NCBI GenBank assembly: GCA_965199495.1
Contig: CBDASK010000003.1
Coordinates: forward strand, 3,072,001 to 3,136,000
Origin: Abditibacterium sp.
GTDB lineage: Bacteria; Armatimonadota; Abditibacteriia; Abditibacteriales; Abditibacteriaceae
DNA: 64,000 nt
Direction of reading: 5' to 3'
This document shows, one piece after another, positions 17,242-30,580 of this stretch (within the stretch, counting starts at the first letter, position 1; the number at the start of each line of letters is the position of its first letter). Both the position numbers and the translations under genes were made by a program. The notes beneath the pieces are model-generated. The model did not search any database. It was given only the letters and a program-made list of their open reading frames with translations, and was not told the origin of the DNA.

Positions 17242-17769
17242 ATGAAGAACACTCTTTTTTTCCAACCGCGTCTCTGGGGCGCACTGACGCTCTCGATTTT
17301 GACGATGGCTCCGTTACCGTTTGTGTTAGCGGTGCCCGGCGCTTCCACTGTGGCGCCGATTGTCAAAGCGCAGTTGCAGGCTTTCAAAGTTCTGCTGCAA
17401 AAAGATGGCGACGAAAAGCTGGCTGCTGCCGACATCGCCAATCCCGGCGATGTCATCGAGTATCAGGCGACCTATTCCAACGATAGCCAGCGCGCCGCGA
17501 CCAATCTCAACGCCACGTTGCCAATTCCCGCCGCGCTATCTTATGTGCCCAACACAGCCACGCCGAGTGGGTTCATGGCCTCGACCGACGCCAAGACCTT
17601 CGCGCCCGCGCCGCTCAAGCGCGCGGTTAAAGACGCCAATGGCAAAACCGTGACCGTTCTGGTGCCGTTTTCCGAATATCGCGCGTTGCGTTGGAACGTG
17701 AAACAGTTGGCGCCCGGCGCCGATTTCAAGGTCAGCGCGCGCGCCAGCGTGCCCAAAGTCGGCAAATAA
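17242..17769 (+). CDS. Small secreted single DUF11-like domain protein (predicted fibre chaperone or cap)
   Basis: Signal peptide; NPGDVIEYQATYSN...TLPIPAALSY...LRWNVKQLAPG...VSARASV; first gene of the DUF11 operon. Confidence 0.75.
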   Translation: MKNTLFFQPRLWGALTLSILTMAPLPFVLAVPGASTVAPIVKAQLQAFKVLLQKDGDEKLAAADIANPGDVIEYQATYSNDSQRAATNLNATLPIPAALSYVPNTATPSGFMASTDAKTFAPAPLKRAVKDANGKTVTVLVPFSEYRALRWNVKQLAPGADFKVSARASVPKVGK

Positions 17770-17889
17770 AATCGCGTTGAAGTAACGCCTTTCCCTCGGT
17801 TTCCCCGGCCCGAAATTCAAACAAGTTGCCCTTGTTTTTAGTTTCGTGCGCCGCATTTTTTTGAAACAATTTAGAAAACCTTTTTCAAC

Positions 17890-20538
17890 ATGACCCAAAC
17901 TCCTTCTCCCTCGCGTTTAAAAACGCTCAAGCGCGCCATGCCCTTCGTGGCATTGGCCATGTCCGCTGGCTTTGTGGCCGCGCCCGCGTGGGCACAGGCT
18001 CCGCGCGCTGGAACTTCCATCGGCAACCAGGCGACCGCCACCTATAACGACGGCTCCAACATCCCGCGCGACGTGCAGTCGAACAGCGTGACGACCCTCG
18101 TTCAGCAGGTCGCTGGCGTTGACCTGACCGATCCGCGCACCATCAACGCGGCGCCCGGCGCGCCCATCGCGTTCCCGCACACCATTCAGAACACGGGCAA
18201 CGGCAACGATTCGTTCAACATCGGCGTGACCGAAAGCACGGGCGATGACTTCAATATCGGTTATCAGGTCTACGCCGACGCCAACCAGGACGGCGTGCCC
18301 GACAATAACACGCCCATCACCGTGACGCCGTCGTTGCAGCCGGGCGAGAAGTTCAACTTCGTCGTCGTCGGCACGGTGCCCGCGAATCAGGCGGCGACCA
18401 AAAACGCCAGCATCACCGTCACCGCGACTTCGACGACGACCAGCACGACCAACGACGCCAACGCCGACAAGGTGATCGTCACCAGCAATGCGGTTATCAA
18501 CGTGGTGAAATCGGTGAGCGCGCCGGTTATCAACACGACGACCAAGGTCGCGACCTATACCTACACGCTGACCTATACCAACAACTCGAACGTGAATTCT
18601 GGCGCCGTTGCCCTGAGCGACACGCTGGATGCGCGTTTGGCTTATAAAGCCGCTTCGGGTTTGTGGAGTGTTTCGGGCACGACGGCGCTGGGCGACAACG
18701 CTGGCAACGCCGACGATCCAGCGGGCATCACCTATGCTCGCAACGCGCAGTTGATTACGGCGACCATCGCGAACGTTCCGGCGCGTAGCACGGGCCGCGT
18801 TTCGTTCTCGGTGGACGTGGCTCCCACGACGGCTCCGGGCTTGATTCCCAACTTCGCCACCTTCGCCTACGACGACGACAACGATGGTAACACCGCCACG
18901 ACCGGGACGGCTTCGGTCAATGGCACGACCAACACGGTAGATGTGAACGTCGGTCAGGCGCCCCTCGTCGCCATCACCAGCCAATCGCAAGGCCCGGTGC
19001 CTCAGGGTTCGACGGTTGTGTTCACCAACACCGTGACCAACAACGGTAACGGTAACGATGTCTTCAACATCACCCTTTCGCCATCGGGCACGCCGTTCCC
19101 TGCGGGCACCGTCTTCCAGTTGTTCCAGCCCGGCGGCGCGGCGGCTTTGCTCGATTCCAATGGCGATGGCATTCCCGATACCGGCCCGATCCTCGCTGGC
19201 GGCACCTATAACGTGATCGTCAAGGCGATTTTGCCTCCGACGACCTCCGGCACCGGCCCCTTCGTCGAAAACGTGATCGCGACCTCGACGACCGGCGCCA
19301 AACCCGCCGCAACCGGCACCGACACGGTGACTTCAATCACCAAATCGGCGGTGGACATCACCAACCGCGACGCCAGCAACAACCGCATTGACGAAACCAC
19401 CCCCGGCGTCACCAATCCGGTTTTGACGCGCACCAGTGGCCCCGGCACCGTCGTGACCTTCCCGCTGTCGGCCAACAACAAGTCGGCTGTCAACGATAAC
19501 TATGCGCTGTCGTTTGTGCCCAACCCGGCTCTGCCCGCCGGCTTTAGCGTCGTCTTCAAAGACCTCAACGGCAAAGTCATCACCAATACCGGCAACATCG
19601 CGCCCGTTGTTCCCGATCCGGCAAATCCAGGCAGCTTCACCAAAGGCGGCTTCTTCGATTATGTCGCCGAAGTCACCATTCCCGCCGGTGCCACGCCGCA
19701 GGACATCGCATTGGCTTTCGCCATCACGTCGGGCGCGTCGGGCGCGACCGATACCGTTAACGACAAATTGACCGTTAGCCCGTTCAACGCGCTGACGATC
19801 ACGCCCAACAACCAAGGCCAGGTCTTCCCCGGCTCGTCGGTCAACTATGCGCACGTCATCACCAACGATGGCAACACCGACGAAACCAACGTCGTCGTGA
19901 CGGCGACCGATTCCCTGGCGGGCTTCTCGTCGGTCATCTACGCCGACAATGGCGCTGGAACCCACGCGGGTAACGGCATCCTCGATCCCGACGAATTGGC
20001 GGCTGGCCCATTGGCAGCCACCGGCATCCCTACGCTCGCTCCCAAAGCGAACTTCCCGATTATCGTTGTGGTCTTTGGCCCCTCGAACCAGTTCACATCG
20101 GGCGCCGTTGACACCACGACCGTGACGGCGACCTCCGCCGGTGGCCGCACAGCCACGGCGACCGACACCACCACGATTGTGGCGGGCGATGTCGTGATGA
20201 CCAAATCGCAATCGGTCAATGGCGCCGCCGCCACGCAGGGCAACGCCGTTGCCAAGCCCGGCGATGTCATTCGCTACACGATTACCGTGCGCAACACCGG
20301 TGGCGCTCCGGTCAACACCGTCGTGGTTTCGGACACCACCCCGGCGTTCACGACCTACAGCGACACCAACAGCGCTGGCACCGCCGATCCGGCTTCGTTC
20401 ACCATCGGCACCGCCGCCGCCGTGGCTGCCACCTCCGCTCCGACCAACGGCGTGGCGGGCACCATCAAATGGACGATTCCCACGCTCAACCCCGGCGAAG
20501 TCGCCACAGTGACCTTCAACGTGAAGATCAACAAATAA
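17890..20538 (+). CDS. Secreted DUF11-repeat Ig-like protein (predicted major fibre subunit)
   Basis: Signal peptide ending AWA-Q; N-terminal AGTSIGNQATATY segment; repeated FPHTIQNTGNGND-type domains; DxNxDG loops; C-terminal DUF11 domain ending TFNVKINK. Confidence 0.88.
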   Translation: MTQTPSPSRLKTLKRAMPFVALAMSAGFVAAPAWAQAPRAGTSIGNQATATYNDGSNIPRDVQSNSVTTLVQQVAGVDLTDPRTINAAPGAPIAFPHTIQNTGNGNDSFNIGVTESTGDDFNIGYQVYADANQDGVPDNNTPITVTPSLQPGEKFNFVVVGTVPANQAATKNASITVTATSTTTSTTNDANADKVIVTSNAVINVVKSVSAPVINTTTKVATYTYTLTYTNNSNVNSGAVALSDTLDARLAYKAASGLWSVSGTTALGDNAGNADDPAGITYARNAQLITATIANVPARSTGRVSFSVDVAPTTAPGLIPNFATFAYDDDNDGNTATTGTASVNGTTNTVDVNVGQAPLVAITSQSQGPVPQGSTVVFTNTVTNNGNGNDVFNITLSPSGTPFPAGTVFQLFQPGGAAALLDSNGDGIPDTGPILAGGTYNVIVKAILPPTTSGTGPFVENVIATSTTGAKPAATGTDTVTSITKSAVDITNRDASNNRIDETTPGVTNPVLTRTSGPGTVVTFPLSANNKSAVNDNYALSFVPNPALPAGFSVVFKDLNGKVITNTGNIAPVVPDPANPGSFTKGGFFDYVAEVTIPAGATPQDIALAFAITSGASGATDTVNDKLTVSPFNALTITPNNQGQVFPGSSVNYAHVITNDGNTDETNVVVTATDSLAGFSSVIYADNGAGTHAGNGILDPDELAAGPLAATGIPTLAPKANFPIIVVVFGPSNQFTSGAVDTTTVTATSAGGRTATATDTTTIVAGDVVMTKSQSVNGAAATQGNAVAKPGDVIRYTITVRNTGGAPVNTVVVSDTTPAFTTYSDTNSAGTADPASFTIGTAAAVAATSAPTNGVAGTIKWTIPTLNPGEVATVTFNVKINK

Positions 20539-20544
20539 TGGATT

Positions 20545-20588
20545 GCGTTACAGGCTTTGGCGACTTCGGTTGATAAAGCCTGTAACGC
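20545..20588 (+). terminator. Stem-loop directly after the major-subunit gene (terminator or mRNA stabiliser)
   Basis: GCGTTACAGGCTTT...AAAGCCTGTAACGC 14-bp stem; no strong U-tract. Confidence 0.55.
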
Positions 20589-20597
20589 CGATCGCGT

Positions 20598-20776
20598 ATT
20601 TATAGCTCTTACCCACTCCATTGTCATTCTGAGCGAGAGAGGAACGAACGGAGTCGAAGAATCCATGACGTAAGGATTTCGACAAAAGTCAAGTTCAATC
20701 GCAACCTATGGATTCTTCGACTCCGTTCGTTCCTCTCTCGCTCAGAATGACAATGGAGTGGGTAAGAGCTATAAAT
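20598..20776. repeat. Long inverted-repeat element (69-bp perfect arms, TGTCATTCTGAGCG...GAAGAATC type)
   Basis: 20598-20666 is the exact reverse complement of 20708-20776. Confidence 0.93.
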
Positions 20777-20898
20777 CAAATTTCCCACCCAAACCCCAAC
20801 CGAACTCATTTGACGCGAGCGTGGAACGCGGTTCCAGTCCCTCCTCTTTCGCTTCAAATGTCCGTTTCGGATATTGCCCATTTTATCGCTTCGCCCCC

Positions 20899-23800
20899 AT
20901 GAACGTTTTTGCTGCTCGCATCGCTCACCTCATTCGTCCCGCCACTTGCGCCCTGTTGGGCGCTGCCCTGATGGCCACTTTGGGCGGCGTGGCTGATGCC
21001 CAGACACCCAGCGCCGGAGTCGCGATCTCCAATCAGGCGAGCGCGAGCTACGAATTGGGCGATGTCATCGTCAACCTGCTTTCCAATCGCGTGCAGGTCA
21101 CCGTCGCGCCCGTCGAAGGGTTGCGCCTCACCGCCGACAACGCCAAACAGGTGCCCATCGGTGCGCCGGTTTCGTTTCCCCATCGCCTGACCAATACCGG
21201 CAACGTCGCGACTTCCTACAACTTCAACGTGAGCAACCAAACCGGCGACGATACCGATCTGTCGGATTTGCGCATTTATGGCGACCTTAACGGCAACGGC
21301 ATCGTGGACGAGGGCGAACCGCGCCTCGACAATGGCGCCGCGCCGGTTGGGTTGGAAGCCGGTCAATCCACCGATTTGTTGGTGACCGGCACCGTGCCCG
21401 TCACTGCCAGCGCCGGGCAAAGCGCGCGCGTCCAGCTCGAAGCCGTGACGCAAAACGCGACGGCGCGCGCGCAAAACGTGGACACAGCCACGGTGGCGCT
21501 GGGCGCCTCGGTCGAAGTGCGCAAAGAAGCCTCGCGCCAGAACGCTTCGCGCGGCGACCAGATTAGCTACGATTTGACCGCGATTTCGCGCGGCGGCGTC
21601 GCGCCCACGCCGACCAATTTAACCGTGGACGGCGCCGCGCGTGCCCTGGTTTTACTGCGCGATAGCGTGCCCGCCAACACGACGTTGGTCAGTTGGACCA
21701 AAACCGGCAACGGCCTGTTGCTCTATCATCGCATCGGCGACGCCGCCAACGCCTACGTCACCGCGCAACCCGATAGCGCCGCTGGCGTTATCACCGATGG
21801 CGTCGCGCTGGGATTGGACAACTTTATTCCCAACTCGACGGTGCGCGCCACGCTCACGGTGCGCGTCAATAACAACGCCAGCGGCAGTTTCGATAACACC
21901 GCCGATGTGATTTATCGCGAGGCGGGCGCCGACCGTACCATCAGCGCGCCGTCGAACACCGTGGGTGTCGCCGTGCCCATCGCGCCGCCGACATTGGCCT
22001 ATTACACGAGCGCGGGTTACACGCGCGAGGCGACGGTGACCGGTTTGAATCGCCCGCTGTTTTTGCAGGGCGACAGCGCCGCCTGTAACGTTGACCCGAC
22101 TGCCGTTGAGCGCGTGACGCTGACGTTGACTTCGACTTTGACCGGCGATTCGATTCGCACGCAGATGATCGAAACCGGCCCCAATACGGGCATTTTTCGC
22201 GTCGAAAATCCGATTCCCACCTCCGACGGCGCCGCCGTGGCTGATGATGGCGTCTTGCAGATTTTGCGCGACGACGTTTTGCAAGCGCGCCTGAGCGGTT
22301 GCGGCACCGCCGACGCCGTCGCGCGCATTTTGGTTGACCCGCTCGGCGTGGTTTACGACGCGCGCACCAACCAACCCGTGAGCGGCGCGCGCGTCACTTT
22401 AATTGACGCCGCGACCGGCCAACCTGCGCGCGTCTTCGATTTTGATGGCGTGACGTCACGTCCATCAACAGTGACAACCGGCGCCGATGGCGTGTTTCAG
22501 TTCCCGCAGGTCGCGCCCGGTCGCTATCGTTTGCAAATCGAGCCGCCCGCCAATTATCTGTTTCCCTCGAAATTGGCGCCCGCCAACCAGCCACCGGGTC
22601 GCACGATTGACGCGTCGGGTTCCTATGGCGGCGAGTTCGCCGTTGACGCCGCGACTGGCGCCGTCGTTTTGGATGTGCCGCTCGATCCGCCGCAGGGCAC
22701 CGGATTGTTCGTGGACAAAATCGCCCGCTCGCGCGACGCCGAAATCGGCGGCACGGTGGATTATCAGGTCACCATTCGCAACGTCGCGGGTGTCGCCGTC
22801 AACAACGTTCAATTATTGGACGGTCTGCCGCGCGGCCTGACCTACGTCGCGGGCAGCGCCCGCCGCCAGAGCGCGAGCGGCGCCAACGGCACGCCCGGCA
22901 TTTTCGCCGCGTTGCCCGATCCGCGCATCGAAAACGTGCGCGCTTTGACCTTTAATATCGGCACATTGGCCAAAGACGAATCGGCAATTATCACCTATCG
23001 CACACTGATCGGCCCCGGCACGCCGACCGGCAAAGTGCGCAATAGCGCGCGCGCCACCGGTGCCACAAACTTTGATTCGTATACATCCAACACGGCCAGC
23101 GCGATTGTCGAGATTCGCGGCGGCGTCTTCACCACGCGCGGCGTTTTGATGGGCCGCGTCTTCGTGGACTCCAATAACAATGGTCGCTTCGACCGCGACG
23201 AATTGGCGGTGCCCGGCGCGCGCATCTTTTTGGAAGATGGCACTTACGCCGTCACCGACGGCGACGGACAATGGACGATTTACGGCGTTTTGCCCCTGAC
23301 GCACGTCGTCAAAATTGACCGCACCACGTTACCAATCGGCGCCACGCTCAAACCGCTCACGGTGAATTACGCGGGCAAAGGCGATTCGGTTTTCGCCGAC
23401 CTGAAAAACAGCGAACTCCAGCGCATCAACTTCGCGCTGAGTAGCACCACCGAGGCTCAAATTGCCGACGTGAAAGCGCGCATCGCCAAGGGTCAAAACG
23501 AGGCGCCCGAAATCACCACGCAACTGCAAAATACGCTCACGACTACGCCCAACACGCAACTCGGCGACACCCGCGCGCAACCCGCGACCGGCGTTGTCGG
23601 CGGCGTGGCTGGCCCGACGAACCAGAATCAGACCTCGCGCACCGTGCAATCGAACGCGCCCGCAGGCATTGACGCGCGCCCGCTTCGCACGGCGGGCGAT
23701 GGCCCGCTCGACGGCCAGTTCGCCCCAGCCACGGCGCCTTCGCTGGAAGCGGGCGCGCGCGAAATCGAAGAGCTTTTGGCGACGCTGCAACCCGGCATCG

Positions 23801-26800
23801 GCATTTTGGGCTACAAAGACGGCGACACTTTGCTGAGCGATCAGATCAACGTGCGCGTCAAGGGCGACGCGGGCACCACGCTGAAACTGACGCTCAACGA
23901 CAAAGCGGTGGACGATGACCGCATCAGCGTGCGTTCGGAAGATAGCAAGCGCGGCGTGCAGGTTCGCGAATATATCGGCCTGAAACTGCGCGCGGGCGAG
24001 AATAATTTGCAACTCAGCCAGATCGATTCGTTTGGCGTGGCGCGCGGCGAAGCGTCGGTGAAGCTCGTTGCCCCCGGTTCGTTGGGCCGCTTGAAATTGA
24101 CGGTGCCAAACGTTGGCGTGCCCGCCGACGGACAGACGGGGACGAAAATTAACGTCGAGTTGGTGGACGACAAAGGCGTGCGCGTCACGGCCCGCACGCC
24201 GATCACGCTCGAAGCCAGCGCGGGCCGTTGGAATGTGCGCGACCTCAACGACACGCAGCCCGGCGTGCAGGTTTTCATCGAAGGCGGGCAGGGCAGCTTT
24301 GAACTGATTCCGCCGTTTGAACCCGGCCAGGCCGTCGTCAAAGTCGCGGCGGGCATTATTTCAGCCGACGCCAAAGTGTCGTTCGTGCCGTATTTGCGCC
24401 CGGTTGTGGCGGCGGGCATTTTCGAGGGCCAATTCGGCTTCAAGGCCAAAGGCGCTTCGCAAATGCCCATCGCGGCTTTCGAGCGCGAATTGCAATCCAT
24501 CACCGGCAACGGCGGCGGACGCGCGGCGGGCTATATTAAGGGCCGCATTCAGGGCAAATATCTGTTGTCAATGCGCTTCGATACGCAGTCAGCCGAAGAC
24601 AACCGGCTATTTCGCGACATTCAGCCCGACGAGTTTTATCCGGTTTATGGCGACAGTTCGACCAAAGGTTTCGACGCGCAGTCCACCGGCAAACTCTACA
24701 TTCGCGTGGACAAAGATCATTCCTACGCGCTCTATGGCGATTTCACGACTTATGCGGCGGACGGATCGGAATCGCTGGGACGCTACGGGCGCGCTTTAAC
24801 CGGCGGTCAAATTCACAGCGAGGACGACAAGTATTCGGCGACGGCGTTTGTTTCGCGCACCAGCGCTTCGCGTATCGTGCAGGAAAAGCGCGCCAATGGC
24901 ACGAGCGGCGTTTACCAACTGGGCGTTTCGGATATTCGCCCGCAATCGGAAATCGTCGAGATTATTGTTCGCGACCGCAACAATCCGGGCCGCGTCATCA
25001 GCGCCACGCAGCAGACGCGTTTCACCGACTACACGCTCGACGGCTTTACTTACGGTCTGCTGTTTCGCCGCCCGATTCCGTCGTTTGACGAAGATGGCAA
25101 TCCGATCTTCATCCGCGTGACCTACGAGCGCGAAACCGGCGGGCCCGACTTCACCGTCTCCGGCGTGGCTGCTCAATATAAAATCGGCAACCGTTTGCAG
25201 GTTGGCGCGGGCGTCGTGCAGGACGACGACCCGACGCGCAAGATGAATATGCGCTCGGTCAACGGCGCGTTGCGTTTGAGCGACGACACGATTTTGGTCG
25301 CCGAATACGCCCAAACCGACACGCCCGAATTCGGTACCGCCGGGGCTTCGCGCTTTGAACTGCGCAAAGACGGCGCGAATTTTCAGGCGCGCGCTTATAC
25401 CGGCACGGCATCGCTCGGCTTCAACAATCCCGAATCGGCCTTGACGCGTGGACGCAGCGAAAGCGGCGTGCAGTTGTCGGCCAAAATCGGCGCCAAAACG
25501 CAGGTCAGCGCCGAAGCGATTCGCACCAAAGACGGCCAGAGCGGCGCCCAAACGCAGGGCGTGCAAGTCGGTTTGGATCACGCGTTTACCAACGATATTC
25601 GCGGCGGCATCGGCATCCGCAACGCCAGTGGCGATGCGTCGGCCAGCTTCGGCGGAACCGGGCAGGACAACTTGAGCTTCACCTCGATTTACGGGCGCTT
25701 GAACGCGCGCGTCGGAGCCAAATCGAACGCTTTCACGCGTTACGAGCAGCAACTGGGCGGCGGCAATCGCTCGCTTTCCCTTGGCGCCGATTATCAGATC
25801 GCACCGCAAACGCGACTCTACGCGATTCACGAATTCTTCGATTCGCCGCTCTCGCTTTACGCTTTGGGCGATACGCAGCGCCGCTACGGCACGCGTCTGG
25901 GCATCGAGACGGCGTATATGCGCGGCGGCACTTTGTTCAGCGAATATCGTCTGGCGGGCGGCGTTGACGGGCGCACCGCGCAGGCGGCGATTGGGCTGCG
26001 CAACCAGTGGAAGTTGGGTCAGGGCATCGGCGTTTCGACCAGTCTGGAGAACACGCGTAATTTGAATGGCGGCATCAATAACGTTGGTTCAACCGCTAAT
26101 TTGGGCGGCGACAATGGCACGGCGGCTTCGATTGGTTTCGAGTCGCTCGGCTCGGACAAATTGAAGTGGACGACGCGTTTGGAAGGTCGCGATGGACAGA
26201 GCAAGACCTTAACAGCCACGGCGGGCGCGGCCTATCAGGCGTCGCGCGATTTGACGATGCTGGGCCGCGCGGCCTACGCCAAATCGAGCGCGGGCGGGTT
26301 CACCGGCACTGGCGGCGTGGCTGCTGTTGGCGGCTTCGACCAGAAGCAGACGCGCGTGCAGTTCGGGCTGGCTTATCGGCCCGTTAAAAGCGACCGTTTT
26401 GTGGCGCTACTCAAATATGAACTGCGCGATGGCGACGATCCGTCGGGCATCGGCGTGCGCTTGCAGCGCCGCCAGAACATCATCAGCGCCGACGCTAACT
26501 ATTTGGTTTCGCAGTCGTTGCAGGCGCGCCTGCACTACGCGTTCAAAAACAGCCGCGACAACACCGATGGCTTGCTGACATCCAGCTCGGCGCACTTGCT
26601 GAGCGGGCGTTTGTCCAAAGACATTACGCGCCGATTGAACCTGTCGCTTTTGGGTTCGACGCTGTGGAACGGCGATTCGCGTCAGGTCGCTTACGGCATC
26701 GAAGCCGGTTACGGTTTGACCGATAATCTGCTGCTCTCGCTCGGTTATAATTTCAGCGAACTGCGCAACCGCGACTTCGCCGACGAGACGCTGGGCAAAG

Positions 26801-27027
26801 GTTTTTATCTGCGCATGCGACTGAAATTCGACGAAGATTTGTTTAGCAACGTGAAAGCGTTCCAGCGCGCGCCCATCGCCAGCAACGCGCAGCCGTTTGT
26901 GCCAGTCACGCAGGGCGGTTTTGGCGGCGGCATCATCGGCAGCAGCGAGTCGGCGGGGTTGGATAGTTTTTCCGGCACGGCGGCGCCCAGAATTGGCGGC
27001 GGCAACGCTATCGGAGGTGTCCGTTAA
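20899..27027 (+). CDS. Large outer-membrane protein with DUF11/SdrD-B-like domains and a C-terminal beta-barrel (predicted anchor or secretion platform)
   Basis: Signal peptide ending ADA-Q from the ATG at 20899; AGVAISNQASASY; two complete DUF11 domains; GRVFVDSNNNG; YPVYGDSS motif; long amphipathic beta-strand C-terminal half with GFYLRMRLKF near the end. Confidence 0.85.
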   Translation: MNVFAARIAHLIRPATCALLGAALMATLGGVADAQTPSAGVAISNQASASYELGDVIVNLLSNRVQVTVAPVEGLRLTADNAKQVPIGAPVSFPHRLTNTGNVATSYNFNVSNQTGDDTDLSDLRIYGDLNGNGIVDEGEPRLDNGAAPVGLEAGQSTDLLVTGTVPVTASAGQSARVQLEAVTQNATARAQNVDTATVALGASVEVRKEASRQNASRGDQISYDLTAISRGGVAPTPTNLTVDGAARALVLLRDSVPANTTLVSWTKTGNGLLLYHRIGDAANAYVTAQPDSAAGVITDGVALGLDNFIPNSTVRATLTVRVNNNASGSFDNTADVIYREAGADRTISAPSNTVGVAVPIAPPTLAYYTSAGYTREATVTGLNRPLFLQGDSAACNVDPTAVERVTLTLTSTLTGDSIRTQMIETGPNTGIFRVENPIPTSDGAAVADDGVLQILRDDVLQARLSGCGTADAVARILVDPLGVVYDARTNQPVSGARVTLIDAATGQPARVFDFDGVTSRPSTVTTGADGVFQFPQVAPGRYRLQIEPPANYLFPSKLAPANQPPGRTIDASGSYGGEFAVDAATGAVVLDVPLDPPQGTGLFVDKIARSRDAEIGGTVDYQVTIRNVAGVAVNNVQLLDGLPRGLTYVAGSARRQSASGANGTPGIFAALPDPRIENVRALTFNIGTLAKDESAIITYRTLIGPGTPTGKVRNSARATGATNFDSYTSNTASAIVEIRGGVFTTRGVLMGRVFVDSNNNGRFDRDELAVPGARIFLEDGTYAVTDGDGQWTIYGVLPLTHVVKIDRTTLPIGATLKPLTVNYAGKGDSVFADLKNSELQRINFALSSTTEAQIADVKARIAKGQNEAPEITTQLQNTLTTTPNTQLGDTRAQPATGVVGGVAGPTNQNQTSRTVQSNAPAGIDARPLRTAGDGPLDGQFAPATAPSLEAGAREIEELLATLQPGIGILGYKDGDTLLSDQINVRVKGDAGTTLKLTLNDKAVDDDRISVRSEDSKRGVQVREYIGLKLRAGENNLQLSQIDSFGVARGEASVKLVAPGSLGRLKLTVPNVGVPADGQTGTKINVELVDDKGVRVTARTPITLEASAGRWNVRDLNDTQPGVQVFIEGGQGSFELIPPFEPGQAVVKVAAGIISADAKVSFVPYLRPVVAAGIFEGQFGFKAKGASQMPIAAFERELQSITGNGGGRAAGYIKGRIQGKYLLSMRFDTQSAEDNRLFRDIQPDEFYPVYGDSSTKGFDAQSTGKLYIRVDKDHSYALYGDFTTYAADGSESLGRYGRALTGGQIHSEDDKYSATAFVSRTSASRIVQEKRANGTSGVYQLGVSDIRPQSEIVEIIVRDRNNPGRVISATQQTRFTDYTLDGFTYGLLFRRPIPSFDEDGNPIFIRVTYERETGGPDFTVSGVAAQYKIGNRLQVGAGVVQDDDPTRKMNMRSVNGALRLSDDTILVAEYAQTDTPEFGTAGASRFELRKDGANFQARAYTGTASLGFNNPESALTRGRSESGVQLSAKIGAKTQVSAEAIRTKDGQSGAQTQGVQVGLDHAFTNDIRGGIGIRNASGDASASFGGTGQDNLSFTSIYGRLNARVGAKSNAFTRYEQQLGGGNRSLSLGADYQIAPQTRLYAIHEFFDSPLSLYALGDTQRRYGTRLGIETAYMRGGTLFSEYRLAGGVDGRTAQAAIGLRNQWKLGQGIGVSTSLENTRNLNGGINNVGSTANLGGDNGTAASIGFESLGSDKLKWTTRLEGRDGQSKTLTATAGAAYQASRDLTMLGRAAYAKSSAGGFTGTGGVAAVGGFDQKQTRVQFGLAYRPVKSDRFVALLKYELRDGDDPSGIGVRLQRRQNIISADANYLVSQSLQARLHYAFKNSRDNTDGLLTSSSAHLLSGRLSKDITRRLNLSLLGSTLWNGDSRQVAYGIEAGYGLTDNLLLSLGYNFSELRNRDFADETLGKGFYLRMRLKFDEDLFSNVKAFQRAPIASNAQPFVPVTQGGFGGGIIGSSESAGLDSFSGTAAPRIGGGNAIGGVR

Positions 27028-27049
27028 GCGCTCGCGCTCGGAGAATATC

Positions 27050-30000
27050 ATGAACCTCAAACGTTTCAAACAACTCGTGGCGCGCGCGGCTCTGGGCCTG
27101 ACTCTGGTGGCGGCTTCGCTGGGCAACGCGCGGGCGGCGCGCGCGGTTTGCGGCACGCCCGGCAAAGATGGGCCATTTACCGGCGGCGGCGTGGTCAACT
27201 CCTATTTCGCTTCGGCGCAGTCGGCCTCGGCGGGCGACCGAACCGTCATTTTGTCGTCGTCGCCGCGCGCTGACGGAGCGCAGACCGGCATCAGCGTGGG
27301 CGACTTGCTGCTGCTGTGGCAAACCCAGGGCGCCACCATTAACTCGACCAACAACGAAAGTTACGGATCGGGCAATGCCGCCAACAATGCGCGCGGTTAC
27401 ACCTCGCTCAACGGCGCGGGCAACTACGAATTCGTGCGCGTTACGGCGGTTAATGGCGGCACTCTCACCGTCGCGGGCGATGGCGCGGGCGGCGGTCTGC
27501 GTTTTTCTTATAGCTACGATCCGACGGCGATTCCGCGCCAGACGTTTCAGGTCGTGCGCGTGCCGCAGTATTCGAGCATGACTTTGACGAGCGCGCTGGC
27601 GCCGGTCAAGTTCGATGGCACCACGGGCGGCGGCATTTTCGTGGATGTTGCGGGCACCGTCACCTTCAGCACGACGACGGGCGCCAGCGTCTATCAGACC
27701 GGTTTTCGCGGCGGTTTCGCGCCGATCAACGACGCGGTCAACTCCAACTCCAATTCGGTCTATCCGATTCCCAACAAGCCGCGCAACGGCGCGGGCAAAG
27801 GCGAGGGCATCGCCGGGCGCCCGCGTTTCGTGTGGAACGAAACGACCGACACCGACAACGGCGTCGAGGGTTATCCCGGCGGCGACGGCGGGCGCGGCGC
27901 GCCCGGCAACGCGGGCGGCGGCGGCAACGCGCACAACTCGGGCGGCGGCGGCGGCTCGAATTCGGGCGCGGGCGGGCGCGGTGGCTATCCGTGGGAAGGC
28001 CAGCCCAGCCAGGCGGGCACCGTCTTCGACACCGTGGCCAACACCAATGGCACCACACGCCAGGTGCCGCGCGCCTGGGGCCAGGGCGCGGCGGCCTTGC
28101 TCAACGGCGGCGCGGCTTTTACCGATCATCTGTTTATGGGTGGTGGCGGCGGCGGCGGCGACGCCAACAATGCCACGACCGGCGTCAAGGGCGGCGTCGG
28201 CGGCGGCGTGATTATCCTGCGCGCGGGCAGTTTCGCGGGCGCCACGACCATTGATGCGCGCGGCGACGCCGGAGATCGCGGCGTCTTTGCCAACGCGCCC
28301 GACGGCGCGGGCGGCGGCGGCGCGGGCGGCACCGTGATTTTGGTTTCGCGCAATTCCAGTTCGGCCTCGATTACCGTCAACGCGCAGGGCGGCGCGGGCG
28401 GCAATACGGTCAACGATCCAATCGATCCGGGTTCGGGCGCCAACAACGGCACGACCTCGCACGGGCCGGGCGGCGGCGGCGGCGGCGGCACCGTGATCTA
28501 TTCGGGACTCAGCGTCACGGCCAACCTCGCGGGCGGCACGGCGGGCAAAACCAACGACGGCGGAACCGGCTCCATTTCGCACGGCGCGGCGGGCGGCGCG
28601 ACGGGTTTGACCGCGCCGCTCACTGCGGGGCAGGGCAATGGACTGACCGATAACGGCGACGGTTGCGCCGCGACTCTCACGGTCACCAAATCTACCACGA
28701 CGCCCTCTGTGGCTGCTGGCACCAACGCGACTTATCAGGTCACTATTGCCAACACGGGCACGGGGAGCGCGGCGGGCGTCGTGGTTGACGACGCGTTGCC
28801 GGTTCCTTTTGCCTACGATCCGGCCTCGCCCGCGACCATCATTTATACGGTGGGCGCGAGTGGCCCGGCGACGTTGGCGGGCACCAACAACACCGCTAAT
28901 GGCGTGACGACCACGCGTTTTGGCACGGCGGGTGACAGCACCAAAACCTTCTTCGTCGGCGCGGGCGCCAGCCTAACGCTGACTTTCGCGGTCAAAACCA
29001 CGGGCGCTCTGCCCGCCAAATACGATAACTCAGCGACCGTGCGTTTCGCTGAACCGCGCCGCACCGATGCCACAATTTTGGTTTCGCCTGGTGGCAAATA
29101 CGCCAATGGAACGACCGTTACGGGTTCCAATTACAACGGAACTCTGGCTGCCAACACCGCCGAAGACGTGACGATTCAGGGCAGCGTGAGCGGCACGGTC
29201 TATCTCGACGCCAACCGCAACGCCACGCTCGATAGCACCGAAAGCGGCGCGAATATCAACAATCTGTTCGTTAAAGCCGTTTTGTCGGGCCAAGCCAGCG
29301 CCGCGCAGGCCGTGCCGGTAACTGCCGCGACGGGCGCGTTCAGTTTCAGCGGGTTAGCGCCCGGTAATTACACGCTCGTGCTGGACGACAACGCGACTTT
29401 GACCGACATCACGCCCGCGCTTCCCGCCGGATATATCGGCACCGAATCGCCGGGCGGCACGCGGCAAATTACCGTCGCCAATCAGGCGCTTCAAAACCAG
29501 AACTTCGGTTTGTTCAACGGCGCGCAGATTAGCGGCAGCGTCTTCGAGGACGGCGGCAACGGCACTGGCCCCGGATTGGGCGGCGTCAAAGTCAATTTGA
29601 CCAAGGCCGACGGCACCATCATTGACACCACGACGACCGATGCCAGCGGCAATTTCGCCTTCAAAGTGCCCAACTCGGTCGGCGCGGGCGTGCTCAAAGT
29701 CGTCGAGTTCAACCTCAGCGGCTACAACTCGGTGAGCGGCAACATCGGCACAACCGGTGGCACTTACGATCAACCGACCGACATAATTTCGTTCCCCTAT
29801 GCGGCGGGTTCGACTTATACCGGACTCAAATTCGGCGATTCGCGCGGCATTACGTTTATTGGCGAAGACGCGAAAACCGGAACGGCGGGTTCGTCGGTGT
29901 TCTATCCGCACGTCTTCGCTTCGCAAACTGCGGGCAACGTGACTTTTACCACGGCGCAACTGCCGACGCCCGCCAACACGGGCTGGAGCGTGGTGACTTT

Positions 30001-30529
30001 CCGCGATAGCAACGGTAACGGCGTTTTGGATGGCGGCGACGCGCAGATCACCGGGCCGGTCGCCGTGGCTGCTGGCGTGCCGATCACGATATTCCTGCAA
30101 AACTTCATCCCGACAACCGCCGCCAATGGCGCGCAGGATAAGCTGACGGTGACAGCGAACTTCACGCCAACAACGGGCGCGGTTCAGTCCATCGCGCGCT
30201 CAGACTTGACGACTGTCGCCGCCAATCAAGGTTTGCTGTTGAGCAAAGCCGTGGACAAAACGACCGCCAAAAGCGGCGACGTTCTGGTTTACACCATCAC
30301 CTATCGCAATACGGGCGCCGAGGCTTTGACCAACCTCGTCGTCAAAGACGCGACGCCTTCTTACACAACATTCCAGAGCGCAACCACCGGGCCGCTCCCG
30401 ACTGGTTTAACGGCGCCAACGATCGCCGCGCCGAGCGCCAACGCCAAAGGCGCCGTGACGTGGACGTTCGGCGGCATTTTGAATCCGGGCCAGAGCGGAA
30501 CGGTGACATTTAATGTGAAGGTTCAGTAA
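27050..30529 (+). CDS. Secreted Gly-rich adhesin with DUF11 and SdrD-B-like domains (predicted fibre tip)
   Basis: GGAG RBS before the ATG at 27050; signal peptide then VCGTPGKDG; many GGGGG runs; GTVYLDANRN and GSVFED domains; C-terminal DUF11 domain ending TFNVKVQ. Confidence 0.85.
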   Translation: MNLKRFKQLVARAALGLTLVAASLGNARAARAVCGTPGKDGPFTGGGVVNSYFASAQSASAGDRTVILSSSPRADGAQTGISVGDLLLLWQTQGATINSTNNESYGSGNAANNARGYTSLNGAGNYEFVRVTAVNGGTLTVAGDGAGGGLRFSYSYDPTAIPRQTFQVVRVPQYSSMTLTSALAPVKFDGTTGGGIFVDVAGTVTFSTTTGASVYQTGFRGGFAPINDAVNSNSNSVYPIPNKPRNGAGKGEGIAGRPRFVWNETTDTDNGVEGYPGGDGGRGAPGNAGGGGNAHNSGGGGGSNSGAGGRGGYPWEGQPSQAGTVFDTVANTNGTTRQVPRAWGQGAAALLNGGAAFTDHLFMGGGGGGGDANNATTGVKGGVGGGVIILRAGSFAGATTIDARGDAGDRGVFANAPDGAGGGGAGGTVILVSRNSSSASITVNAQGGAGGNTVNDPIDPGSGANNGTTSHGPGGGGGGGTVIYSGLSVTANLAGGTAGKTNDGGTGSISHGAAGGATGLTAPLTAGQGNGLTDNGDGCAATLTVTKSTTTPSVAAGTNATYQVTIANTGTGSAAGVVVDDALPVPFAYDPASPATIIYTVGASGPATLAGTNNTANGVTTTRFGTAGDSTKTFFVGAGASLTLTFAVKTTGALPAKYDNSATVRFAEPRRTDATILVSPGGKYANGTTVTGSNYNGTLAANTAEDVTIQGSVSGTVYLDANRNATLDSTESGANINNLFVKAVLSGQASAAQAVPVTAATGAFSFSGLAPGNYTLVLDDNATLTDITPALPAGYIGTESPGGTRQITVANQALQNQNFGLFNGAQISGSVFEDGGNGTGPGLGGVKVNLTKADGTIIDTTTTDASGNFAFKVPNSVGAGVLKVVEFNLSGYNSVSGNIGTTGGTYDQPTDIISFPYAAGSTYTGLKFGDSRGITFIGEDAKTGTAGSSVFYPHVFASQTAGNVTFTTAQLPTPANTGWSVVTFRDSNGNGVLDGGDAQITGPVAVAAGVPITIFLQNFIPTTAANGAQDKLTVTANFTPTTGAVQSIARSDLTTVAANQGLLLSKAVDKTTAKSGDVLVYTITYRNTGAEALTNLVVKDATPSYTTFQSATTGPLPTGLTAPTIAAPSANAKGAVTWTFGGILNPGQSGTVTFNVKVQ

Positions 30530-30539
30530 AAGTAGCGCG

Positions 30540-30580
30540 ACAAAAAAGAGCCAGCGAGACTGTTCGCTGGCTCTTTTTGT
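30540..30580. terminator. Bidirectional intrinsic terminator
   Basis: AAAAAAGAGCCAGCGA-loop-TCGCTGGCTCTTTTT between convergent genes. Confidence 0.85.

Follow-up and report, generated by a model that had tools for sequence, protein, structure and literature searches.

Within a 64,000-nucleotide stretch of the Abditibacterium sp. genome (contig CBDASK010000003.1, positions 3,072,001 to 3,136,000; hereafter, the window), we have examined an operon of four genes whose products probably assemble by themselves into a surface fibre on a diderm bacterium; the fibre would be made from a CLIPPER (DUF11, CnaA-like) domain that is split between polypeptide chains. The operon consists only of these four co-directional genes on the + strand, lying within 17242..30529: namely, those of a small secreted protein (P0001), a putative shaft subunit (P0002), a giant base protein with a predicted outer-membrane β-barrel (P0003), and a putative tip protein (P0004). 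As the core of the mechanism, we consider it likely that an N-terminal hairpin of one subunit complements an open domain of another, thereby building a tip-shaft-barrel assembly. Sec-type leaders are recognized by inspection on all four proteins. TIGR01451 (cut-off, 24 bits) is matched by P0001 to P0004 with 33.0, 63.5, 58.6, and 61.2 bits, respectively, and Pfam DUF11 (PF01345; cut-off, 24.6 bits) by P0002 (46.7 bits), P0003 (43.5 bits), and P0004 (51.0 bits), with P0001 falling just below the cut-off at 23.5 bits.

The open domains are located at the C-termini of P0002 and P0004. In the Pfam alignment, the last DUF11 domain of P0002 (residues 782-881) covers profile positions 7-85 of 114 and ends one residue before the stop, and that of P0004 (residues 1063-1158) covers positions 3-84. 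A preliminary description of this DNA had proposed that these two proteins end before the Asn-bearing strands of the domain, and the profile indeed stops there; the sequence strings quoted in that description and the codons named for N46, K772, and D815 (Table 1) were all found in place. The Lys-Asp-Asn triad of the CLIPPER single-domain rule is present in the internal domains of P0002 (K207/D244/N321) and P0003 (K608/D642/N716) but not in the C-terminal domains of the shaft and the tip. Judged from their sequences, these terminal domains are split members of the CLIPPER/DUF11 family.

For the donor side, we restricted a profile to the two final strands of the complete internal domain, as aligned in 120 shaft relatives, and compared it with the open reading frames (ORFs) of 13 loci and the window. 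At an independent E-value (i-E) of <0.01, 24 stretches were matched: 13 internal domains, 8 N-terminal hairpins of shafts (8/13 shafts), 3 N-terminal hairpins of barrel proteins (3/13 barrels), and nothing else. The hairpin of P0002, I44-G45-N46...Y52-N53-D54...S64-N65, aligns to I319-P320-N321...Y327-D328-D329...T347-N348 and hence places N46 in the column occupied by N321, the Asn of the complete domain. A donor at the mature N-termini of P0002 and P0003, as had been proposed, is thus confirmed by the profile matches, and only its wording needs to be amended, in that the donor is a two-strand hairpin and not a single strand. When the 4.8-Mb genome (95% complete) was searched through all of its 41,754 stop-to-stop ORFs, furthermore, the donor profile hit only P0002 (7e-21) and P0003 (0.0049), both at the mature N-terminus, and the acceptor profile hit only the C-terminus of P0002 (1e-38), the C-terminus of P0004 (3.8e-17), the complete internal domain of P0003 (6e-10), and P0001 (i-E of 0.0097). 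The operon is the sole copy in this genome, and the predicted set of parts is closed: two free hairpins, two open domains bearing Lys and Asp, and one open domain without them.

These parts are strongly conserved. More than 1848 relatives of P0002 were found at E ≤ 0.001 (485-1544 residues in length; 828-913 residues among the matches listed), 120 of which were fetched and aligned. I44, N46, A48, D54, S64, N65, K772, N802, D815, and P818 are kept in 120/120 relatives, and the triad of the internal domain is kept in 118 (K207), 119 (D244), and 120 (N321); for comparison, the mean column identity of the family is 48% in a 30-sequence subset. The tail beyond the last strand is 3-10 residues long in the 120 relatives and exactly 4 residues in 103 of them. 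The terminal truncation reads, therefore, not as a broken gene but as a conserved feature of the family.

We also compared 12 loci from Gammaproteobacteria, Betaproteobacteria, Terriglobia, Candidatus Eisenbacteria, and unclassified bacteria. The order of small protein, shaft, and barrel protein is kept in 12/12 loci, and a protein resembling the last ~450 residues of P0004 comes next in 9/12, with the end of the locus, a run of N, or other genes in the remaining three. The hairpin motif lies just past the leader in 12/12 shafts and 12/12 barrel proteins, and the 11 whole shafts as well as the C-terminal piece of the one in L006, which is split by N, stop right past the last strand. Lys and Asp are kept in 12/12 shaft acceptors and in 7/7 aligned tip acceptors, and all seven tip C-termini lying inside the loci end 0-2 residues past the last strand. 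The survey of homologous operons suggested in the preliminary description hence finds the same distribution of parts across the 12 loci, the exceptions being the hairpin Asn in the barrel proteins of L005 and L009.

Each protein, moreover, carries the part or parts that had been assigned to it. P0003, described as donor only, has the donor match at its N-terminus and its own DUF11 domain complete; among 48 relatives of its first 420 residues, a donor-profile match at positions 2-103 is found in 46, with a degenerate motif only in one and an internal match only, in a different architecture, in the other. The hairpin Asn is kept in 43 of those 46. P0002, described as donor plus acceptor, is matched by both profiles, with N46, K772, and D815 invariant as above. 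The Gly-rich P0004, described as acceptor only, has no donor match. Eight tip N-termini were inspected, three of which share another head (Cys-x-x-G-x-C-V...LASVDS), and none has the donor pattern near its start; a loose donor pattern gave two matches only in tips, both deep inside those of L004 and L008. Among five tip relatives elsewhere, three match DUF11 positions 2-84 at the very end, one matches positions 2-69 short of the C-terminus, and one has no DUF11 match. P0001, finally, is acceptor-like as claimed: it is matched by the acceptor profile and has neither the conserved Lys nor the Asp, the latter being replaced in 13/13 family members. The sequences, in short, place one domain on separate chains, with the donor part alone in one protein, both parts in another, and the acceptor part alone in a third, and keep its putative reactive residues invariant.

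Docking of the hairpin on the open domain, a check that had been suggested along with the proposal, was examined by complex prediction for shaft residues 755-882 with shaft residues 36-80, using 30-row alignments and three controls. The complex scored 0.81 (0.81, 0.84, and 0.79 in the runs) versus 0.00 for the best of the three controls; the score mark is reached by 116/157 solved complexes and 2/215 mismatched pairs, which is a rough guide only, given the custom alignment used here. Agreement between the runs extends to at least 96% of contacts, and the partner has a predicted local distance difference test score (pLDDT) of at least 79. The predicted interface is formed by domain residues 763-774 and 806-816 with hairpin residues 44-56 and 62-72, and both K772 (contacting hairpin residues 48, 64, and 67) and D815 (contacting 48 and 49) are in it. 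The prediction gives no Lys-Asn distance and does not distinguish intra- from intermolecular docking, but it supports completion of the open domain by the hairpin. Each element of the proposed parts list has hence held up in silico, and the interpretation that had been drawn from it is supported at the level of sequence comparison and structure prediction.

The fold of the shaft is consistent with the family assignment. The full-length model of P0002 is a string of β-sandwich domains (mean pLDDT of 85.2; predicted template modelling score of 0.53), and its approximately five Ig-like domains include one complete CLIPPER domain. This internal domain (residues 198-355) is CnaA-like; when compared with the CLIPPER structure 9IFR by VIA-align, it gave Z of 12.2 and a root-mean-square deviation of 2.5, the alignment pairing 120 residues with the chain of 123 residues at 26% identity; this comparison was made for the internal domain. 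BcpA (Z of 13.6) and SpaD (Z of 13.1) were also matched in fold. Single-sequence searches of the PDB with the internal and the terminal domain gave no match, and a profile of 19 acceptor domains gave only weak protocadherin matches (E of 0.008-0.05), which we take as chance; our connection of these domains to 9IFR is therefore based on Pfam together with the fold comparison. Lys and Asp are separated by 34-43 residues in the domains examined here versus 33 in the solved CLIPPER domain (PMC12617251). As a side observation, the shaft acceptors of the other loci (L001-L012) for the most part contain a two-Cys insert (D..C.G ... PG.C), likely forming a disulfide, which is missing from the tip acceptors; the shaft in the window has no Cys.

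In the assembly that we propose, the hairpin of a shaft subunit would complete the last domain of the tip, and more shaft subunits would join head to tail in the same manner. The hairpin of the barrel protein would then complete the last shaft subunit and thereby anchor the fibre to the outer membrane. Within every domain completed in this way, Lys (K772 or K1066) and Asp (D815 or D1100) would meet the incoming Asn (N46 in the shaft) and form a Lys-Asn isopeptide; such an autocatalytic bond in every completed domain would make the joints covalent without a sortase. The fibre would thus start with the tip, grow at the base, and receive its anchor last, the same polarity as in chaperone-usher pili. 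Polymerization, the covalent bond, and the surface location are inferred from these data, and our confidence is lower for a covalent bond at every joint, the length of the polymer, the export route, and the role of P0001 than for the hairpin complementation itself. More speculatively, the barrel of ~32 strands might also be the export pore, with subunits passing through its lumen. The fibre would likely function in adhesion or aggregation, and the carriers seen are environmental bacteria.

Some of our results weigh against this proposal. The complex prediction would give a passing score also for completion within the same chain, since domains that have been cut tend to be reassembled by the tool, and close cousins of a true partner pass as well. 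The barrel has no usher likeness and only low TM scores to known barrels. Furthermore, the Asn of the barrel hairpin is replaced in 2/12 loci (Ser in L005 and Ala in L009) and in 3/46 relatives. The remaining hairpin is kept in these proteins (Ser in L005:3680-9613, Ala in L009:12327-17864, Ser in P0164, Ala in P0173, and Val in P0176); covalent rooting is thus not universal, and the root joint would be non-covalent there.

Among the alternatives, the one to be taken most seriously, albeit unlikely in our judgment, is a defined three-part adhesin instead of a polymer. It would contain tip, shaft, and barrel protein in a single copy each, joined by the same hairpin complementation; the tip acceptor would be the specific partner of the shaft hairpin, and the shaft acceptor that of the barrel hairpin. 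Consistent differences between the shaft and barrel hairpins and between the shaft and tip acceptors would fit such pairing, as would the Cys-containing insert in most shaft acceptors outside the clade of the window but not in tips, and a passing score can be obtained for close cousins of the true partner, as mentioned above. Nonetheless, docking of the shaft hairpin to a shaft-type acceptor is predicted at 0.81 versus 0.00 for the controls, and this hairpin is far more constrained (eight positions in 120/120) than the barrel hairpin, as would fit a hairpin serving two acceptors.

We consider it rather improbable that the hairpins complement the open domains without any covalent bond, the joints relying on completion of the fold alone in the manner of chaperone-usher and type V pili. 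None of Lys, Asp, and Asn varies among the 120 shaft relatives, and the Lys-Asp spacing noted above resembles that of the solved CLIPPER domain (PMC12617251); on the other hand, some DUF11 domains have no triad (PMC12617251), and the modules persist without their reactive residues in P0001 and a few barrel hairpins. Indeed, the fold of P0001 tolerates the loss of Lys and Asp, and the invariance of these residues in the shaft and the tip therefore points to selection for the triad.

Intramolecular closure, in which the N-terminal hairpin would complete the last domain of its own chain to give monomeric adhesins, seems very improbable to us. This possibility is left untouched by the complex prediction, which is blind to the difference, and in the single-chain shaft model the hairpin strands (43-46, 49-53, 59-63, and 67-71) are predicted with pLDDT of ~85-93. 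A chain of about seven domains with short linkers would, however, have to fold back on itself. The strongest argument against closure is the distribution of the parts: the hairpin of the barrel protein is not accompanied by an open domain in the same chain, nor the open domain of the tip by a hairpin, in this genome as well as in the loci and the relatives. It is, finally, scarcely credible that these are unrelated DUF11 adhesins in which the truncation is a domain-boundary effect and the N-terminal motif a chance likeness, for although DUF11 proteins occur very widely and in many forms (PMC12617251), the motif was found only at the expected N-termini in the profile controls, and its invariance, the position of the stop, and the gene order are all conserved.

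The base protein P0003, of 2043 residues, merits further description. Its N-terminal region is 36% identical to shaft residues 29-212, and the base protein hence starts like a shaft subunit; in its stalk, Ig-like and prealbumin-like domains accompany complete DUF11 domains. The ORF could be lengthened by starting from an in-frame GTG at 20758, but the likely start is at 20899, where the leader-like sequence begins. The AlphaFold2 (AF2) model of the barrel (mean pLDDT of 71.6 from a 12-row alignment) has its strands within residues 324-899 of the modelled fragment, and the barrel ends with the C-terminal Phe signal YLRMRLKF, F1978 being encoded at 26827-26829. The last ~960 residues of P0003 have no sequence match in the PDB and no Pfam family above the cut-off; in 12 barrel domains of relatives, weak Pfam matches were seen to Porin_4 in three (best E of 1e-6), DUF2490 in three, and OMP_b-brl in two. 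Usher (PF00577) was not matched in these 12 barrel domains at E ≤ 1, nor was it found in the genome of the window at its 95% completeness. At the top of the Foldseek matches stand only large outer-membrane barrels (LptD, Deinococcus SlpA, MtrB, TonB-dependent receptors, and SprA; E of 1e-7 to 1e-5) with template modelling (TM) scores of 0.28 or less, and the barrel is therefore assigned to no specific known family. As a lead only, the Protein Atlas links the barrel part at 0.97 to clusters, one of which is auto-named outer-membrane beta-barrel. The barrel model, these matches, and the presence of Omp85 in the genome fit an outer-membrane location of P0003. The Gly-rich tail beyond the barrel is predicted to be disordered, and its motif AGLE.F.GT.AP.I.GG is common to the closest barrel relatives; distant relatives end soon after KFDE..F.

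Across the loci, conservation of the tip is limited to its C-terminal ~450 residues. The head of P0004 scored 104.1 bits over residues 26-492 against AgmC (NF047640, a Myxococcus gliding protein), well under the cut-off of 275; we thus rejected membership in that family and ascribe the match to likeness of Gly-rich repeats only. In the Protein Atlas, again as a lead only, the tip head reached no more than 0.89.

P0001 matches DUF11 (profile positions 9-65 of 114) and TIGR01451 only, with no match to a PapD-like chaperone, the remaining genome not having been searched for PapD. Together with its 12 counterparts, it is a single domain with the middle and last strands of the acceptor (W..[IV]..L.PG......F/V.V); the conserved Lys of the first strand is absent from the family, and the Asp position is occupied by Leu (10), Gly (2), or Ala (1) in the 13 sequences. 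P0001 thus looks like an acceptor-like domain that is apparently unable to form the isopeptide, and we speculate that it is a non-covalent cap or chaperone that may reversibly cap free hairpins in the periplasm. P0001 and P0002 contain no Cys and cannot, therefore, be lipoproteins.

As regards the surroundings of the operon, the upstream gene lies on the opposite strand, and a terminator-like hairpin closes the operon downstream (Table 1). The gap between the shaft and barrel genes is 360 bases (20539-20898) versus 22 bases between the barrel and tip genes; a terminator scan found no terminator-like site in 20539-20898, and this gap might set the shaft-to-barrel ratio. The G+C content is 0.61-0.64 over the operon (18001-30000) versus 0.51-0.55 in the flanking 2-kb bins. 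Together with the patchy occurrence of the shaft gene, this could reflect horizontal acquisition, or only the composition of Gly/Ala/Thr-rich proteins. A look-up among sequencing runs gave no RNA run.

Table 1. Features of the four-gene operon (coordinates refer to the window).
Feature	Coordinates	Strand	Description
Small secreted protein gene P0001, 175 aa	17242..17769	+	Single truncated CLIPPER-like domain without Lys/Asp pair
Shaft subunit gene P0002 (putative), 882 aa	17890..20538	+	Signal peptide, N-terminal donor hairpin, ~five Ig-like domains, truncated C-terminal CLIPPER
Shaft donor hairpin, residues 40-71	18007..18102	+	Candidate isopeptide Asn, N46 (18025-18027)
Shaft internal complete CLIPPER domain, residues 198-355	18481..18954	+	K207, D244, N321
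Shaft acceptor, residues 765-882	20182..20535	+	C-terminal CLIPPER without last two strands; K772 (20203-20205), D815 (20332-20334)
Giant base protein gene P0003, ~2040 aa	20899..27027 (printed from 20896)	+	Signal peptide, donor hairpin, stalk, predicted C-terminal outer-membrane barrel
Barrel-protein donor hairpin, printed residues 40-70	21013..21105	+	Asn (21031-21033)
Complete internal DUF11/CLIPPER domain of P0003, residues 606-735	22711..23100	+	K608, D642, N716; profile positions 4-110 of 114
Predicted outer-membrane β-barrel of P0003, residues 1403-1978	25102..26829	+	32 consecutive long antiparallel strands (AF2)
Gly-rich tail of P0003, ~65 residues	26830..27024	+	Predicted disordered, pLDDT <50 for fragment residues 905-964
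Tip protein gene P0004 (putative), 1159 aa	27050..30529	+	Signal peptide, Gly-rich AgmC_N-like head, complete DUF11, SdrD_B/prealbumin-like domains, truncated C-terminal CLIPPER
Tip acceptor, residues 1060-1159	30227..30526	+	K1066 (30245-30247), D1100 (30347-30349)
Terminator-like hairpin	30543..30578	+	16 pairs followed by T run; closes operon

Named hosts of the relatives include Nevskia, Thiobacillus denitrificans, Synoicihabitans lomoniglobus, and an Abditibacteriota bacterium. Within the phylum of the window, the shaft gene is patchy, being found in 24/301 genomes including that of the window; it is found in 9/12 other genomes of the genus. Five genomes of the phylum (G084, G161, G179, G197, and G265) have two shaft-gene matches at separate places, those in G265 being adjoining halves of a split gene and one of those in G179 being partial; two whole shaft genes in one genome suggest two systems. 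We also noticed a fifth gene directly 3' of the barrel gene in 4/12 loci (L001:13896-14960, L006:18569-19705, L008:18513-19685, and L010:18733-19893). Its product of ~350-390 residues has a peptidoglycan-binding domain of the OmpA family (E of 1e-15 to 2e-19) and, in 3/4, a lipoprotein-like leader; a C-terminal part related to it is encoded at L013:4997-7255. The fifth gene is absent from the operon in the window, and the sole similar stretch in this genome is an OmpA-like domain elsewhere.

Taken together, a broader reading can be advanced, tentatively and with the caution that it may well prove to claim too much: a new and widespread class of pilus of two-membrane bacteria (in Pseudomonadota, Acidobacteriota, Verrucomicrobiota, Abditibacteriota, Eisenbacteria, and probably Cyanobacteria), in which a CnaA-like domain is split into a two-strand tag and a catcher and self-ligates head to tail without a sortase, ATP, or a classical chaperone-usher pair. 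The barrel would serve as export pore, terminator, and covalent anchor at once, and P0001, as an acceptor mimic devoid of Lys and Asp, would chaperone the free tags.

In chaperone-usher pili (FimH/FimA/FimI/FimD/FimC), each incomplete Ig-like subunit receives its missing part from an N-terminal extension of the subunit that follows. Our operon would share with them the incomplete fold and its N-terminal completion, a tip acceptor without a donor, growth at the base, a barrel at the root, and the arrangement in one operon; this likeness, seen here from sequence and prediction, is one of mechanism and not of homology. The differences are that no usher is matched in the barrel protein or in the genome (95% complete) and no PapD-like chaperone in the operon, on which grounds we rejected assignment to the chaperone-usher class, that the donor is a two-strand CnaA-like hairpin, and that the joints are probably covalent. 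Also, the anchor or terminator and the barrel are one polypeptide here, and the candidate chaperone resembles the acceptor and not a strand donor. A cap formed by P0001 would hence mirror the logic of PapD with the roles exchanged, the acceptor being what a PapD-type chaperone caps. With anchor and barrel fused in one protein and the small protein resembling an acceptor, the question arises of how reactive subunits are kept apart in the periplasm and cross the outer membrane.

Other classes of surface structure were considered as well. Type V pili (Fim/Mfa of Bacteroidota), whose subunits are lipoprotein precursors that undergo proteolytic processing before strand exchange, were rejected, as P0001 and P0002 have no Cys and no FimA/Mfa family is matched. 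So were autotransporters and inverse autotransporters, with no Pfam match and ~32 predicted strands versus the 12-strand or intimin-type barrel; only the layout of a passenger before a barrel is alike. Sortase-assembled pili (BcpA, SpaD, and EbpB) resemble our proposed fibre in the CnaA/CnaB-type shaft, the internal isopeptides, and the covalent polymer, but are linked from Lys to a C-terminal Thr, whereas the link proposed here would be an autocatalytic Lys-Asn bond in a completed domain. No LPxTG-type signal (LP.[TSA]G) is present in the four proteins and no pilus sortase in the locus, and a sortase-assembled pilus was rejected accordingly. Independence from sortase, as had been claimed, stands as far as these signals are concerned but needs qualification, since one sortase-family gene, the only homologue in the genome, lies 1.6 Mb from the operon (C3:1485658-1486023; 85 bits, above the cut-off). 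With this gene and Omp85 in the same genome, the organism is a diderm carrying a sortase.

A comparable principle is seen in BsaA of Clostridium perfringens, a member of the TasA family, in which an N-terminal segment enters the sheet of the neighbour and an intermolecular isopeptide follows ("exchange and lock"), with mutants of the bonding residues losing oligomers (10.1101/2024.11.04.621531). BsaA differs from our operon in fold and family, Gram-positive host, secretion associated with SipW and type IV pili, and the lack of an outer-membrane barrel anchor; indeed, we rejected the TasA/BsaA family, as none of the four proteins has a Pfam or NCBIfam match to a TasA/camelysin-type fold and the four-gene operon contains no gene for a SipW signal peptidase. 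Likewise, the threads of Sulfolobus acidocaldarius (Saci_0406) are assembled head to tail by donor-strand complementation, with proposed intermolecular isopeptides and no known sortase (PMC9715654). They are, however, archaeal and of an unrelated fold, the bond joins the N-terminal amine of Asp24 to Asn57 of subunit n+2, and there is no barrel anchor (PMC9715654).

With the CLIPPER/DUF11 domain itself, whose crystal structure (9IFR) has a Lys-Asp-Asn isopeptide of K715/D748/N806 (PMC12617251), the operon shares family, fold, and triad, and its internal domains are ordinary members. In its terminal domains, by contrast, the strands bearing Asn are on another polypeptide, and the bond would therefore be intermolecular. 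The isopeptide-domain survey treats intramolecular bonds only, and a term search of it gave no split or polymerising CLIPPER (PMC12617251). Two other reports on DUF11 concern different things: a 6,596-residue monomer with 49 DUF11 domains in Litorilinea (10.1101/2025.08.19.671072) and the use of a DUF11 signal peptide for secretion by Synechococcus (PMC13297417). We found no description of a split DUF11 domain, or of a DUF11 pilus with a barrel in diderms, in the full-text literature searched, subscription journals and supplements being outside the search. Exchange-then-lock fibres hence have precedents in other folds and envelopes and appear undescribed as a class of diderm pilus. If our proposal is true, diderms of many phyla would possess a covalent, self-ligating pilus outside the chaperone-usher, type IV, type V, curli, and sortase classes, and autocatalytic isopeptide chemistry would operate between subunits at Gram-negative surfaces and not only inside adhesin domains.

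The operon can finally be compared with SpyTag/SpyCatcher, an engineered split CnaB2, in which a domain with the Lys-Asp/Glu-Asn/Asp residues is cut into a peptide and the remainder and ligates spontaneously. Unlike that man-made CnaB pair with its one-strand tag, the split proposed here would be natural and CnaA-like, have a two-strand tag, and serve polymerization. If so, protein ligation could draw on the family as a large natural library of orthogonal tag/catcher pairs of a new type, in which a two-strand tag is matched by a CnaA-like catcher.

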